Below are positions 1,977 through 64,000 of a DNA stretch of 64,000 bases, one piece after another; position 1 is the first letter of the stretch, and every line of letters begins with the position of its first letter. The position numbers were made by a program, and so were the translations under genes. The notes beneath the pieces are model-generated. The model made no database searches, was not told the DNA's origin, and saw only the letters and a list, made by a program, of their open reading frames with translations. The stretch spans positions 152,992 through 216,991 of the forward strand of contig JBIKWJ010000001.1 of assembly GCA_044356325.1 (NCBI GenBank), in the 5' to 3' direction. This DNA comes from Minisyncoccia bacterium (GTDB taxonomy: Bacteria > Patescibacteriota > Minisyncoccia > SW-4-49-11).

Positions 1977-2504
1977 TTATAATAATTTTTTTAACTCTTC
2001 AATAGTATTTTCCCAATTAATATGATGGATACCTATTTCACCTTTTGCAAACCAATTTTCAATAGTGTCTAAGGAATCATCAATTAATATATTTCCTTTT
2101 TGAGCATAGGATATTTTAAACCTTTTACCAGCAACAAAAATTGGTTCAAATTCTATATTATATTGTTTTAACCATTGTAATTTTTGTATCTTTACTTTTT
2201 CAAATAAATTTTCTATGCTGGAGGTTGAAGATAATATTCTAATAGGAATATCCAATTGTCGCAAAAAATTCATCCCTAATTCAAAATCTGATACTGGATT
2301 CAAATTAGCCCAATATCTTTTCTCTACAAAATCTGGCAAGGTATCATAAAGTAAATTTCTTCTTTCTTGCATTTCACTATTTGACATTTTATGCATAGGA
2401 ATTGTATCCAATCCATTCATACGATCAAATGTAGAGTTAAAGTCAGCCAATACCCCATCAAGATCAACAAAAATTTCTTTAATCATATTATTATGTTTAT
2501 ACAC
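1977..2504 (-). CDS. HAD-superfamily 5'(3')-deoxyribonucleotidase-like phosphatase
   Basis: 175 aa. N-terminal DLDGVLADF HAD motif I, as in the NT5C-type nucleotidase family. Confidence 0.55.
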   Translation of the reverse strand: MYKHNNMIKEIFVDLDGVLADFNSTFDRMNGLDTIPMHKMSNSEMQERRNLLYDTLPDFVEKRYWANLNPVSDFELGMNFLRQLDIPIRILSSTSSIENLFEKVKIQKLQWLKQYNIEFEPIFVAGKRFKISYAQKGNILIDDSLDTIENWFAKGEIGIHHINWENTIEELKKLL

Positions 2505-2536
2505 TCACTTAATTGTGAATAAGATGAGATACATCG

Positions 2537-2745
2537 TAGATAAGTTGTGAGTTATGTAGAGGGTGACCTTTCAGTCACTTTTGTCCCCCTTTGGAGGGGG
2601 GAGCCTGAAAGGCGGGGGTGGATAAAATACAAATGTAAACTCTATCTACCTCCGGCCTAATGGCCACCTCCTCCCTGCCTACCGCAGGCAGGCAAAGGAG
2701 GACAATTTCTATAACAATTTACAGTTTTTAGGCTAATAATTTACA
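2537..2745 (-). mobile_element. GC-rich MITE-like repeat, copy A (reverse orientation, diverged, one TIR recognisable)
   Basis: About 55% GC in a roughly 30% GC genome. Shares the core cctgcctaccgcaggcagg and ccccc-tttgga-ggggg hairpins and the terminal aagatgagatacatcgtagata with copies at 11841, 28197 and 34291. Confidence 0.6.
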
Positions 2746-2807
2746 GCAACACTTTTTGCCTAAGATATCTTCATCTCATACTAAGTATATACAAAATATC
2801 AAAAATA

Positions 2808-2816
2808 TGCTATAAT
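2808..2816 (+). promoter_or_regulatory. Extended -10 promoter element TGCTATAAT upstream of tRNA-Ser
   Basis: TGnTATAAT lies 12 bp upstream of the tRNA 5' end. The same 9-mer recurs upstream of five other genes in this window. Confidence 0.55.
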
Positions 2817-2827
2817 ATACCTCATTA

Positions 2828-2916
2828 GGAAGTGTGGCTGAGCGGTTGAAGGCGGCAGTCTTGAAAACTGTTGTAGGGTTACACCTACCAGAGGTTCGAA
2901 TCCTCTCACTTCCGCA
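2828..2916 (+). tRNA. tRNA-Ser (anticodon UGA)
   Basis: Cloverleaf readable by eye. Acceptor ggaagtg/cacttcc, anticodon loop cuUGAaa, long variable arm, T-loop GGTTCGAATCC. Confidence 0.85.
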
Positions 2917-2922
2917 TAAATC

Positions 2923-2960
2923 CCATATATTAGAATTTATTCTGATATATGGGTTTTTTA
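2923..2960 (+). terminator. Rho-independent terminator after tRNA-Ser
   Basis: Hairpin cccatatat...atatatggg followed by TTTTTT. Confidence 0.55.
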
Positions 2961-3100
2961 TTTGGAGAAGTGAAGGGAGCAATAGCATTGCTCCCGTGGG
3001 GATGAGAAAGTCGCAGCCCGGTGTGAGTTTGTGCTAAGCACAAGGCGAACACAGCGAGACGGGGTCGCGGAAATTTACCGTCAGGAAAATTATCTGTGAC

Positions 3101-3119
3101 CGAATCCTCTCACTTCTGC
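3101..3119 (+). repeat. Duplicated 3' end of tRNA-Ser(UGA), attR-like
   Basis: cgaatcctctcacttcTgc matches the tRNA T-arm/acceptor 3' segment with one mismatch, 184 bp downstream of the intact tRNA. The intervening DNA is GC-rich and hairpin-rich. Confidence 0.6.
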
Positions 3120-3202
3120 TGAAGTAAAAAGTAGATAGTTTTCTTAACTGTTTATACATCTTTTATTTTATATCTAATTTTCCCACGATGTATTCGTCCT
3201 AT

Positions 3203-3230
3203 TGAATAAGATGAGACAGATCGTAGACAA
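3203..3230 (+). repeat. Solo terminal inverted repeat of the GC-rich MITE-like family
   Basis: ttgaataagatgagacagatcgtagacaa matches the element termini, but no element body follows. Confidence 0.45.
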
Positions 3231-3281
3231 CAGTGTGTACATAAATATTTATCACCTCCACTCTTTCTTTACGAAATATGG

Positions 3282-3980
3282 TTAGTCTTTTGAGAATTGA
3301 ATGATTTTTTGGATATTTTTTTCATTAAACTTATCTATGAATAAAATCTTTTTAAAATCTATGTTTTTATCTGTTTTTTGAATGTTTTGAATGAGTGTTT
3401 CTTTTGAAAAAGTAGATGTTATAGAAATAACTTTAGACCCCGCTCTGTATCCTGCTATTATTCCTGATGGTGAATCTTCAATAACTAAGCATTTTTCAGG
3501 ATTTATATTGAGTTTTTTTGTTGCAAAAAGATAAATATCTGGTGCTGGTTTATGTCTTGTAACCATTTCAGAACGAAAAATATTTCCGTTGAATTTTTTA
3601 CTTATTTTTAATCTTTTATCAATTAAGTCAAAATATTCTTTACTACAAGCCGTAACAATAGCTACAGGGCAATTAAAATATTTTACTATTTTTGAAAAAA
3701 ACTCATTAAATCCCTCCATATAAGGAATTTCTTCTTTGTAAAACTTTTTTTTATTTTCTTTTCTACGTTCATTGAATTCTTTTCCCGAAAGAGGCACTTT
3801 GTGATGTTTAACAAGAATGTTCATTCCTTCAATATCTGATTTACCCACCATCAAAGGTTTAATAATATCTCTGTCATAAGGTTTTTCAAATATTTTCAAC
3901 AAGTCAGCACAAGCCTTATCATTAAACGGTTCGCTATCAATTACAACTCCATCCATATCAAAAAGCAATCCTTCTATCAT
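3282..3980 (-). CDS. HAD-superfamily hydrolase (subfamily IA-like phosphatase/phosphomutase)
   Basis: 232 aa. FDMDGVVIDSE motif I, a T/S-containing motif II and a C-terminal EDSPSGIIAG motif. Confidence 0.65.
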   Translation of the reverse strand: MIEGLLFDMDGVVIDSEPFNDKACADLLKIFEKPYDRDIIKPLMVGKSDIEGMNILVKHHKVPLSGKEFNERRKENKKKFYKEEIPYMEGFNEFFSKIVKYFNCPVAIVTACSKEYFDLIDKRLKISKKFNGNIFRSEMVTRHKPAPDIYLFATKKLNINPEKCLVIEDSPSGIIAGYRAGSKVISITSTFSKETLIQNIQKTDKNIDFKKILFIDKFNEKNIQKIIQFSKD

Positions 3981-11774: not shown

Positions 11775-11840
11775 AATTTTTTATTTTATACTATATCAAT
11801 ATATTAGCATATCATATCATATTGTCAATTAACATTATGA

Positions 11841-12125
11841 AATGAGGAGATCGTAGACAAAAGAGATTATTATACATTACTATCCTACCGGCCGTAGCTT
11901 TGTACAAAAAGTGTCCTCCTTTGCCTGCCTGCGGTAGGCAGGGAGGAGGTGGCCGTCAGGCCGGAGGTGGATAGAGTTCAGGTCTTTATCTTATCCACCC
12001 CCGCCTTTCAGGCTTCCCCCTCCTAAGGGGGACAAAAGTAATAATTCTTTTGTTACGACAATATATGCGACTGTAAGGTCGCCCCTACACAACTCATATA
12101 ATGTCTACGATGTATCTCATCTTAA
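11841..12125 (+). mobile_element. GC-rich MITE-like repeat, copy B (full length, both TIRs)
   Basis: Left end gagatcgtagaca and right end tgtctacgatgtatctc form imperfect TIRs. The body is nearly identical to copy D at 34291-34572. It sits between divergent promoters. Confidence 0.65.
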
Positions 12126-12152
12126 TTCAAAATATACATATACCCCCCAATA

Positions 12153-28196: not shown

Positions 28197-28490
28197 AGAA
28201 GAGATCGTAGACAAAAAAGATTACTATATATTATTAGCCTACCGACCATAGCTTATTACAAAAACTGTCCTCCTTTGGAGGAGGTGGCCGTCAGGCCGGA
28301 GGTGGATAGAGTTTAAGTTTGTATTTTATCCACCTCCGTCGCAAATAGGATTTGCTTCTGTGAAACCTCACGGTTTCCCAACCTTCCTTCACGGGAAAAC
28401 TCCCGTTTTCCCGACCCCTTTCCCAGACTTACAGTCTACCTTTCAGGCACCCCCTTCCTGCCTGCGGTAGGCAGGAAGGGGGACAAAAGT
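28197..28490 (+). mobile_element. GC-rich MITE-like repeat, copy C (left TIR only, with a nested ~105-bp insertion and a swapped hairpin module)
   Basis: Collinear with copies B and D, except for an extra segment at 28335-28439 and replacement of the ccccc-tccaaa-ggggg hairpin by ccccc-ttcctgcc-tgcggta-ggcaggaa-ggggg. Confidence 0.55.
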
Positions 28491-28530
28491 ATGTTATAGT
28501 TAAATCAATAAATATTTAATAAATTGTATT

Positions 28531-34238: not shown

Positions 34239-34290
34239 ATTAAAATAAATTATATCATATATTGACAATTGTTGCAAAGCTTTTTATGAG

Positions 34291-34572
34291 ATGAGGAGAT
34301 CGTAGACAAAAGAAATTATTATACATTACTATCCTACCGGCCGTAGCTTTGTACAAAAATTGTCCTCCTTTGCCTGCCTGCGGTAGGCAGGGAGGAGGTG
34401 GCCGTCAGGCCGGAGGTGGATAGAGTTTAAGTTTGTATTTTATCCACCCCCGCCTTTCAGGCACCCCCTCCAAAGGGGGACAAAAGTAATAATTCTCTTG
34501 TTACTACAATATATGCGACTATAAGGTCGCCCCTACGTAACTCATATAATGTCTACGATGTATCTCATCTTA
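34291..34572 (+). mobile_element. GC-rich MITE-like repeat, copy D (full length, both TIRs)
   Basis: Near-identical to copy B. TIRs are gagatcgtagaca and tgtctacgatgtatctc. It sits between the msrA stop and the NUDIX promoter. Confidence 0.65.
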
Positions 34573-34577
34573 TTCAT

Positions 34578-45938: not shown

Positions 45939-46937
45939 TTAAGGGAGATCTCTAATAGGACCAGTACCTGTTGGCCAGACACAGTTAACATTTATATGGT
46001 AGTTACCATTATAATCACCATAATTATTACAAGTCTCAGTCCCCCCAGGTTGAAATCCTTGTATACTAGAGCCTGGTCCAGCAGGTACTCCCCATACAGT
46101 TGAACAAATAGAACTTATAACTCCAGGGTCAGTACAGGCACCCTCAAAACCAGTTGGACCTCCCGCACAAGTATCCGCATATCCTGAGTAAGCTGTATAA
46201 GCTTGAGTTAATTCACATTTCCATATACCACTTCTCTTAACTGCGCTATAAGCAATGCCTCCACTCTGTGTTGCACCATTACACGATGTCCGGCTTCTAA
46301 GATTGTAAAGTGTATTACATCTAATCTGTGCTTCTGGTTGAGTTAATATTGGTGTTGGAGTTGGAGTTGGTGTTGGTGTTGGAGTTGGTGTTGGAGTTGG
46401 TGTTGGAGTTGGTGTTGGAGTTGGTGTTGGAGTTGGTGTTGGAGTTGGTGTTGGTGGAGTTAAAGAATTATTTCGTGGCATTGTAGTTGATTGCATTGTA
46501 ACTGTATCTTTACCATCTACAGATTTGGCTGTAATAACTACAGTCACTATAGTTCCTGGGCTATTATTATTTACTGAACTACCATCCCCAGCCTTAATAA
46601 AAAATCTAATATCCTCAACGGTAAATACACTAGAATCAGTATAGGCATTACCTGACTTATTGATAATATTGCCAGCTTTTGTATATACTACATTTGCACC
46701 ACTTTGATCTTTAAATGATAATGCACCTGATGCATTAATACTAAGATTCGATGAGGTTCTCAATTCTTTGTCCATCACATTCAAAACAAATTGCACATTA
46801 TCTCTTACATTATCACTTTGTTGAGAATCTCTTTGATATTTGATAATATTAGTAATAGGTTGGGCTACTACCAATACAATAATAGATAATATACCGATTA
46901 CCACTGTTAATTCTGTTAGAGTAAATCCTTTTCTCAT
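45939..46937 (-). CDS. Type IV pilin-like protein with a (TP)n linker and a Cys-rich C-terminal domain
   Basis: Prepilin leader MRKGFTLTELTVVIG is a class III signal. About 25 tandem TP dipeptides. The C-terminal roughly 130 aa contain 10 Cys. Confidence 0.6.
   Translation of the reverse strand: MRKGFTLTELTVVIGILSIIVLVVAQPITNIIKYQRDSQQSDNVRDNVQFVLNVMDKELRTSSNLSINASGALSFKDQSGANVVYTKAGNIINKSGNAYTDSSVFTVEDIRFFIKAGDGSSVNNNSPGTIVTVVITAKSVDGKDTVTMQSTTMPRNNSLTPPTPTPTPTPTPTPTPTPTPTPTPTPTPTPTPTPTPILTQPEAQIRCNTLYNLRSRTSCNGATQSGGIAYSAVKRSGIWKCELTQAYTAYSGYADTCAGGPTGFEGACTDPGVISSICSTVWGVPAGPGSSIQGFQPGGTETCNNYGDYNGNYHINVNCVWPTGTGPIRDLP
46351..46462. repeat. Tandem repeat (ggtgtt/ggagtt units, about 9 x 12 bp) encoding the (TP)n linker
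   Basis: Perfect 6/12-bp periodicity visible in the DNA. Confidence 0.8.
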
Positions 46938-63645: not shown

Positions 63646-63680
63646 ATAAAAATCCCCAGCTACAAAGCAACTGGGGACAT
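63646..63680 (-). terminator. Rho-independent terminator downstream of the GC-rich edge gene
   Basis: On the minus strand, ccccag-ttgctttgtag-ctgggg is followed by atttttattttg. Confidence 0.5.
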
Positions 63681-63756
63681 AGAGTAAAACCAGAAATGGT
63701 CAAGGCGACTGCTCCCCGTGAGGGGTTAGTTGCTATCATTTTAGGTTTACGAGAAA

Positions 63757-64000
63757 CTAGAAACGGATGCCGGCGCGAAGCTTGGCGACAAGGCCATCAC
63801 CGGAGGTGCCCGAGTTGTACCCGAGAACACCTTCAGTATAGGCATTCTTGCCGATGCCGACCTGGAGACCACCGCCCACTTGGACATTGTGGTAGCTATA
63901 ACCGACCTCTCCTCGGACTTCCCCGAAGGGACGCAGCTGACCACTCTTGGTCAGATAATACCGGCCATAGCCATTGGCATAGGTTCCGGTATTGTTCACA
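63757..64000 (-). CDS. C-terminal fragment of an outer-membrane beta-barrel-like protein (gene continues past the window edge)
   Basis: 80-aa partial. Gly/Tyr-rich alternating pattern ending ...LRAGIRF with a terminal Phe. The segment is about 58% GC, against about 30% elsewhere. Confidence 0.35.
   Translation of the reverse strand, partial: VNNTGTYANGYGRYYLTKSGQLRPFGEVRGEVGYSYHNVQVGGGLQVGIGKNAYTEGVLGYNSGTSGDGLVAKLRAGIRF

Follow-up and report, generated by a model that had tools for sequence, protein, structure and literature searches.

A structured unit behind a patescibacterial tRNA-Ser(UGA) gene ends in a copy of the tRNA tail and resembles the RtT repeats of Escherichia coli

The DNA that follows the tRNA-Ser(UGA) gene (positions 2916-3119) in the 64,000-nucleotide stretch of patescibacterial DNA analyzed here (hereafter, the window) is best explained as one RtT-like unit, that is, a non-coding, structured module of about 200 nt that resides on the 3' side of Paceibacteria tRNA genes, a reading to which we assign a probability of about 70%. 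The parts of the unit are, in order, a hairpin region that varies, a 5' strand with complementarity to tRNA positions 56-65, a three-way-junction core of approximately 95 nt and, finally, a copy of the tail of the partner tRNA, which closes the fold; in the tRNA-Ser-linked type, the acceptor 3' strand, too, has a complementary strand of its own. The closest known thing to this unit is the RtT repeat of E. coli and not a genomic island. The family to which the unit belongs is structurally equivalent to RtT but comes from the very distant, genome-reduced Patescibacteria (CPR), and, for each of its eight partner tRNAs, the tail copy changes accordingly, as do the pairing strands. Because eight tRNAs are involved, the combination of a tRNA tail with a closing helix is a general principle rather than a quirk of one locus; furthermore, the family supplies the sequence variation that defines the fold and the invariant junction, which the E. 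coli copies alone cannot, and raises a sharp, testable question, namely, that of the capture of a new tRNA's tail at T-loop positions 56/57. Such units mimic the scars of att sites and can be mistaken for remnants of islands.

The locus itself contains all the parts that the original prediction had recognized, i.e. an intact tRNA gene, a hairpin behind it that was read as its terminator, a GC-rich segment with two perfect hairpins, and a 19-bp copy of the tRNA 3' end. ARAGORN and Rfam agree on an intact tRNA-Ser(UGA) gene, without an encoded CCA, at 2828-2915 on the plus strand, on which all other features of the unit are located as well. A promoter-like site (2788-2816; TATACA, a 17-nt spacer and TG-TATAAT) lies 11 nt 5' of the gene and is the sole site of this kind from which the tRNA and the unit could both be transcribed; no promoter-like site of the unit's own was seen directly 5' of it in the window locus. 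A copy of a GC-rich MITE-like repeat (2516-2784, minus strand) abuts this promoter. The hairpin behind the tRNA gene (hp0) is AT-rich, with a perfect 14-bp stem (2922-2953), and is followed by TTTTTT (the entire element spanning 2922-2959), a terminator-like arrangement in the window strain. At the position of hp0, at least six unrelated stems were observed in the loci L001, L003-L005, L010, L013, L015 and L017, and such unrelated stems occur among otherwise 96-100% identical strains as well as in related species; a loop core, (A/U)AUUUAU, is common to the hp0 of the window, that of L001 and the type present in L003, L004, L005A and L010, and the U-tract is present in only some of the variants, with several lacking it.

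The insert between the tRNA gene and the downstream tail copy (2916-3100) is 185 bp long, has a G+C content of approximately 54%, compared to 33.7% for the window, and contains no credible open reading frame. Behind hp0, it continues with X' (ggagaagtga, 2964-2973), the 5' strand of helix P1, which is complementary to the acceptor 3' strand in the downstream tail copy, and with the P2 hairpin, the first of the two predicted perfect hairpins (gggagcaat-agc-attgctccc, 2975-2995), in which the strains differ by compensatory changes and which has a homologue in the P2 of tRNA-Glu-linked units. These are followed by the 5' strand, or 'guide', of the closing helix P3 (2998-3006), in which GGGGAU pairs with AUCCUC of the tail copy and is succeeded by a tandem GA/GA mismatch and a G-C56 pair. 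The conserved core (3007-3100) encompasses the junction AAA, P4 (3010-3012 with 3058-3060), P6 (3021-3024 with 3049-3052), the P7 hairpin (3027-3034 with 3038-3046), a GG(G) motif and a long hairpin, P8 (3064-3079 with 3084-3100), the 3' strand of which ends in GUGAC, the invariant terminus of the core; the second perfect hairpin, ttgtgct-a-agcacaa, is located at 3029-3043. The unit is completed by the second copy of the tail (X2, 3101-3119), cgaatcctctcacttcTgc, which corresponds to tRNA positions 56 to 73 plus one base, provides the 3' strands of both P3 and P1, and matches, in 18 of 19 positions, the first copy (X1, 2897-2915), which extends from C56 of the T-loop through the discriminator and one further base within the tRNA-Ser(UGA) gene. 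The repeat of the tail cannot be due to chance because, at each of the related loci, the tail of the upstream tRNA recurs unchanged as the 3' segment.

Altogether, the family was collected as 26 distinct sequences, all of which come from Paceibacteria (Patescibacteria/CPR) genomes and metagenomes. A model, R1, built from 25 distinct sequences, matches the window only once, at 2994-3121, with a score of 143 bits. A motif scan of one genome per species yielded nine true matches, all in Paceibacteria or Parcubacteria MAGs, and a metagenome scan from which the Ser-UGA type was excluded added 13 further units; a scan of viral contigs with the core motif produced no match. A tRNA gene immediately precedes every collected unit on the same strand, and the partners are eight, namely, tRNA-Ser-UGA, Ser-GGA, Ser-CGA, Ser-GCU, Gly-UCC, Glu-CUC, Arg-UCG and Leu-UAA. 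In each case, the 3' segment of the unit, its final 16-25 nt or more, is the partner tRNA's own tail, forming a direct repeat that ranges from 16 to more than 90 nt across the loci, and the tail copy tracks the T-loop variants gaacccc (Arg), aagtccc (Leu) and aaatccc (one Ser-GCU). The GUGAC|C56 junction is invariant across the units, and the module is about 86% identical across loci while the tail changes with the partner tRNA. Two core variants, GGAGCGAUG and GGAGCCAG, are both represented among the Arg-linked units and, likewise, among those linked to tRNA-Ser-GCU. Moreover, X' and P2 are homologous across partners (Ser-UGA with Glu, and Gly with Ser-GGA), which indicates that the entire unit, and not the core alone, is related between partners. 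The tail copy is exact with respect to the neighboring gene in the related loci (18/19 in the window) but the complementary strands are only partly matched in some of the types, a contrast that speaks for copying of the tail from the gene, with later adaptation of the pairing strands.

The window unit and divergent members of the family yielded, at both gathering and E-value thresholds, no Rfam family other than tRNA, all remaining matches being at chance level, and none of the ribozyme or intron covariance models of Rfam matched the core. Other identities were considered and rejected. A group I intron, prompted by a published report (PMC13011429), does not fit because introns of this kind are located in anticodon loops and none of the intron models has a match. 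A likeness to hammerhead or hairpin ribozymes (GAUGAG..GAAA; AGAAGUC..UGAC) was abandoned given that GAUGA is absent from class II units and that the covariation does not discriminate. Finally, a MITE or another transposon is contradicted by the inverted repeat, P3, being complementary to a target-derived tail and changing with that tail, and by the direct repeat of 16 to more than 90 nt in place of a short target-site duplication of fixed length.

The three-way-junction fold on the tRNA-sense strand is supported by covariation. The RNAalifold consensus includes 37 pairs, 12 of them with a compensatory change. With P3 extended to C56, 94.4% of the cells are paired, compared to 37-50% in slid controls, changes on both sides are seen in 13 pairs (2-5 in slid controls), and the observed pairing values were not reached in any of 500 shuffles; folded as a single sequence, the window unit attains a z-score of -5.1, its 5' end being paired with the tail copy. 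The partner of the 5' strand in P3 is tail positions 56-65. Over 7-8 nt, this strand is the exact reverse complement of the tail in the units linked to tRNA-Arg, tRNA-Leu and tRNA-Ser-GCU (GGGGUUCG, GGGACUUG and GGGAUUCG, respectively), and the Leu type shows that it is no copy of the 5' half of the T-arm of the same tRNA; the GA/GA tandem mismatch takes the place of two P3 pairs in the Ser-UGA, Ser-GGA, Ser-CGA, Gly and Glu units. Enclosed within P3 is a three-way junction that consists of the conserved AAA strand, an irregular P4-P6-P7 stack with invariant internal loops and the long hairpin P8, from the 3' strand of which the chain continues directly into C56. The presence of invariant G-U pairs identifies the tRNA-sense strand as the one that folds. 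Differences between strains are largely compensatory, for instance, gggagcaat/attgctccc versus gagagcaat/attgctctc and ttgtgct-a-agcacaa versus ttgcac-aaa-gtgcaa.

In the tRNA-Ser-linked units, including that of the window, the extra strand X' (2964-2973) pairs with the acceptor 3' strand and, in the modeled fold, P1 together with P3 imitates the acceptor/T-stem stack of a tRNA, which is the part recognized by RNase P, RNase Z and the CCA-adding enzyme. This acceptor-like helix is missing from the units linked to tRNA-Arg, tRNA-Leu and tRNA-Ser-GCU, so a full mimic of the top half of a tRNA is not universal in the family. The P1-P3 stack of the tRNA-Ser-linked units brings to mind other tRNA-like processing signals, such as the t-elements of plant mitochondria and the external-guide-sequence substrates of RNase P. 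In contrast to these, however, a conserved domain of approximately 95 nt replaces the T-loop, P1 is not found in three of the types, and the CPR unit copies the neighboring tRNA exactly instead of a generic one.

The number of units differs among close relatives. The HAD gene that flanks the tRNA-Ser(UGA) locus is present on 21 metagenome contigs, one of which (L002) matches the window with 100% identity across 2.1 kb, and the insert is carried by all the strain variants (L001, L003, L004, L005 and L008). One of these, L005, harbors two tandem units that are 88% identical to each other, in the order tRNA, hairpin, core A, tail, hairpin, core B, tail; two full units are present also in L011, L030 and L038, compared to one in the window. 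Many of the arrays end in a fractional unit, and GC-rich MITE-like repeats split the second unit in L029, L035 and L037. Two paralogous tRNA-Gly loci of L014 contain 1.3 and 0.3 units, respectively. This pair was considered as a virgin site next to a filled one, an interpretation that was discarded because the 'empty' paralogue keeps X' and P2, homologous to those of the Ser-GGA-type unit of L018, and so the two loci differ in copy number. In L019 and L045, CCA or CCCA follows the downstream tail copy and is not encoded in the gene itself.

Orthologous loci beyond the species were traced via a neighbor gene, VIT1. In a syntenic relative with the same neighbor genes (L042; VIT1 70% identical), tRNA-Ser(UGA) has neither a unit nor a tail copy, and in another relative (L045; VIT1 68% identical), the unit is present. 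Since an empty site exists and the tail repeat holds in the relatives, the original view of an insertion-like segment that is bracketed by direct repeats of the tRNA tail survives, with a presence that varies from none in L042 to two tandem units in L005. The HAD gene did not provide another route to orthologous loci inasmuch as its homologues beyond the species are found on archaeal-labeled contigs without synteny. In particular, the nearest homologues of this HAD-family hydrolase (3282-3980, minus strand) outside its own species are 61-70% identical and come from contigs labeled as DPANN archaea; the two neighborhoods examined (P0003 and P0004) show no synteny, and the syntenic relative L042 lacks the HAD gene. 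Nearest homologues of this kind, without synteny, suggest lateral transfer of the HAD gene into this lineage.

Knowledge of E. coli RtT repeats dates back to the late 1970s, and those of the tyrT locus, 178 bp in length, were reportedly described by Egan and Landy in 1978, by Rossi et al. in 1981 and by Bösl and Kersten in 1991; to our knowledge, their function is still not established. The last of these studies is cited in a more recent paper (PMC3318445). We compared the family with the tyrT-tyrV locus of E. coli K-12 MG1655 (NC_000913, 1286200-1287900; L048), which contains four RtT units (RF00391, 133-137 bits), each with the structure GGGGAAGGAU-GAGAAG...GCUGAGU-AAUCCUUCCCCCACCACCA. The closing helix is formed by GGGGAAGGAU and by AUCCUUCCCC, the latter within the copy of the tRNA-Tyr tail, and is followed by the GAUGAGAA junction; the annotated 3' end of the rttR RNA is exactly the CCA of the tail copy. 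The top four matches of model R1 in this locus are the four RtT units, full length and in the same register, albeit weak, with scores of 8.6-11.2 bits (roughly calibrated E-values of about 0.006-0.04 for the 1.7 kb searched), and bare tRNA T-arms score 3.0 bits under the same model. In the opposite direction, RF00391 did not match positions 2400-3400 of the window at E<=10 or the loci L027, L028, L032 and L038 at E<=1, the gathering threshold of 45 bits not being reached.

The likeness between the CPR units and RtT (rttR, 178-bp repeats, RF00391) nevertheless extends over the entire layout. Both come immediately after a tRNA gene, share its orientation and end in a copy of the tail of that tRNA that begins in the T-loop; in both, a 5' strand pairs with the tail to close the fold, and GAUGAGAA comes after the 5' strand of the closing helix; both have a GC-rich core of about 100 nt, share GGAUGAGAA and occur in tandem arrays of variable copy number. 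The RtT core is found in 1-10 places per E. coli genome, with a median of 3; it is absent from 688 of 5426 complete E. coli genomes, and 18 occurrences are on plasmids. The differences, however, are substantial. RF00391 is blind to the CPR units, and the reverse match does not exceed 9-11 bits; RtT folds into one closed domain that is followed by an unpaired 3' stretch whereas the CPR units consist of two domains; the tail copy starts at A58/59 in E. coli RtT but at C56/57 in the CPR units; the CCA is encoded in the E. coli tails but not in the tRNA-Ser(UGA) gene of the window; RtT follows tRNA-Tyr genes in the K-12 locus examined whereas the CPR family serves eight tRNAs with matching tails; and the E. 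coli RtT units overlap the small ORF tpr. The architecture, then, is equivalent to that of RtT, and common descent is suggested, with convergence being possible; given that the inner folds differ, homology with RtT is unproven.

By analogy with the rtT RNA of E. coli, the unit would be transcribed by read-through from the tRNA promoter, and the tRNA-processing machinery would release it as a stable RNA, the 3' end of which would resemble that of a tRNA. Both steps find support in E. coli: rttR is described as processed from the tyrT transcript (PMC3318445; bioRxiv 10.1101/2024.07.17.603846), and rtT RNA as possibly linked to stress or the stringent response (bioRxiv 10.1101/2024.07.17.603846; PMC3318445). 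The terminator-like hairpin and U-tract that separate the window tRNA from the unit weaken this model because co-transcription would require read-through across them. Gain and loss of units would occur by unequal crossing-over or loop-out between the direct repeats of the tail (at least 19 nt); the copy-number polymorphism points to such recombination, which would explain arrays, single units and unit-free sites alike. An attractive possibility for the origin of new partner types is that a new tail is captured at position 56/57 by a guide-directed process at the RNA level or by template switching.

A different explanation, which we consider distinctly less probable than that of an RtT-like unit although still worth attention, is a selfish, non-autonomous mobile element that targets tRNA tails via its own RNA. 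Under this scenario, the 5' guide would pair with T-loop/T-stem positions 56-65 of the tRNA or its gene; the core, acting as a ribozyme or as an RNA bound by a trans-acting enzyme, would join the GUGAC 3' end to position 56/57; and the resulting chimera would be written behind the tRNA gene by reverse transcription or recombination, thereby duplicating the tail. The two explanations overlap in that the unit could be mobile and functional at the same time. Mobility of this kind would account for a single conserved core with an invariant C56/57 junction across eight partner tRNAs, for guides that are exact 7-8-nt reverse complements of the first bases of the tail (Arg, Leu and Ser-GCU) without being copies of the 5' half of the tRNA's own T-arm (Leu type), for the differences among close strains in presence and in tandem arrays, and for core variants (GGAGCGAUG and GGAGCCAG) that do not strictly track the partner type. 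However, no reverse transcriptase, integrase or transposase is linked to the units, no known ribozyme family matches the core, and the tRNA-Ser(UGA) unit occupies an orthologous position in many species-level genomes, as would fit vertical inheritance. Furthermore, no unambiguous pair of virgin and filled sites sets the insertion boundaries, considering that the 'empty' L014 paralogue keeps X' and P2, and group II introns are absent from Patescibacteria according to one paper (PMC13011429).

Guide-bearing mobile RNAs were compared as well. The resemblance lies in a conserved scaffold that is joined to a short segment dependent on the insertion site and in an internal strand complementary to the target; introns of groups I and II possess guide and exon-binding sequences, and TnpB and IscB use guide RNAs that combine a scaffold with a flank. 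By contrast, the CPR unit has no intron core, nuclease, transposase or Rfam match, and its site-specific segment is base-paired inside the unit and not free. The strongest form of the mobility hypothesis, under which RtT-like units are a hitherto unrecognized class of RNA-guided, 'tail-capturing' mobile RNAs that, by guide pairing with positions 56-65 and joining at position 56/57 catalyzed or directed by the core, can use any tRNA without an element-encoded protein, appears improbable; if true, it would account for the CPR family and, at the same time, for how the RtT repeats of E. coli arose. A TnpB-type combination of scaffold and guide, with G53-T54-T55-C56 as a universal adjacent motif, was considered separately and rejected because there is no TnpB, IscB or transposase in the window and because the 'guide' is base-paired inside the unit.

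Very unlikely, in our assessment, is a structure that functions at the DNA level, i.e. a single-stranded-DNA site of recombination or replication, similar to attC or the ends of IS200/IS605, and served by a trans-acting enzyme. The long perfect hairpins (hp0 and P2), which keep their structure while the sequence is hypervariable, would be at home in such a site, as would an internal strand that pairs with the flanking target sequence, given that the guide sequences at the ends of IS200/IS605 pair in the same way. The invariant G-U (G-T) pairs, the elaborate three-way junction and the conserved unpaired purines, however, are more characteristic of RNA, an RNA has been detected for the E. coli counterpart (PMC3318445), and neither an HUH transposase nor an integron integrase is found among the window ORFs scanned or in the related flanks.

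Several features of the locus are those of tRNA-targeting integrative elements: direct repeats of a tRNA 3' segment flank the insert, the left boundary is in the T-loop, the tRNA remains intact, and empty sites exist. The original prediction proposed an attL-element-attR arrangement produced by an integrase, either as the deletion remnant of an integrated element or as a very small tRNA-targeting element. The latter description comes close to the data, apart from the classical integrase mechanism, which lacks support. The search for an integrase recovered none, and no transposase or reverse transcriptase either, among the 20 window ORFs scanned with Pfam, all of a housekeeping nature (SHMT, TsaD, Mur ligase, MurG, type IV pilus, glycosyltransferases); the related flanks, likewise, contain no integrase, and no protein family is common to the flanks of units with different partners. 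Nor does the element carry a constant core of the att type, or attP core: the repeat is the tail of whichever of the eight tRNAs lies upstream. Thus, although the foreign-looking, GC-rich DNA between direct repeats of a tRNA 3' end, the empty site in a relative, and the CCA or CCCA after the tail copy in L019 and L045, as expected of a displaced original tRNA end, speak for it, an island remnant, with attL and attR of a tyrosine recombinase left after near-total deletion, is effectively refuted by the finding that the 185 bp are a conserved, covarying, structured module of fixed length, present at more than 20 loci in many species, that does not change with the partner tRNA while the repeat does, that forms tandem arrays with fractional terminal units, and that is accompanied by no integrase among the window ORFs scanned or in the related flanks.

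The other tRNA-Ser gene of the window, tRNA-Ser(GCU) (27147-27059, minus strand), had been said to show the same architecture. This is correct with regard to the layout, in that a tail copy with a 28/29 match is located at 26889-26861 on the same strand, but not with regard to the module. The tail copy begins earlier than that of tRNA-Ser(UGA), in the 5' strand of the T-stem, and is followed by CCA, which is not encoded after the tRNA-Ser(GCU) gene, and by a strong terminator; the intervening insert of approximately 170 nt is GC-rich and structured (fold z-score of -3.0). It matches neither the family model nor any Rfam family and is not homologous to the tRNA-Ser(UGA) insert, and was accordingly rejected as a family member. 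It does contain GATTCGAAA, identical to the sequence that makes up guide and junction in the Ser-GCU-type units of L031 and L033 and, judging by this sequence, the insert may be a decayed or replaced unit. A 21-nt hairpin, agcaaatccYatttgcgacgg, is common to this insert and to a nested insertion at 28336-28356.

The window includes additional repeats. The GC-rich MITE-like repeat, of approximately 270-300 bp and with terminal inverted repeats (…gagatcgtagaca / tgtctacgatgtatctcatcttattca), is present at 2516-2784 (minus strand) and at 11838-12127, 34287-34577 and 28198-28500 (plus strand), the last copy containing a nested GC-rich insertion of about 100 nt, and a solo 27-mer of the repeat is found at 3203-3229. 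The end motif of this repeat, or related GC-rich repeats, interrupt the second RtT-like units in L035, L029 and L037. Another GC-rich segment, 63666-63990, without an Rfam match, is the 3' part of a minus-strand protein gene that runs off the window. Finally, a 12-nt tandem repeat (GTTGGAGTTGGT-like, about 13 copies) occupies positions 46311-46468, inside a minus-strand ORF with an N-terminal pilin methylation motif.
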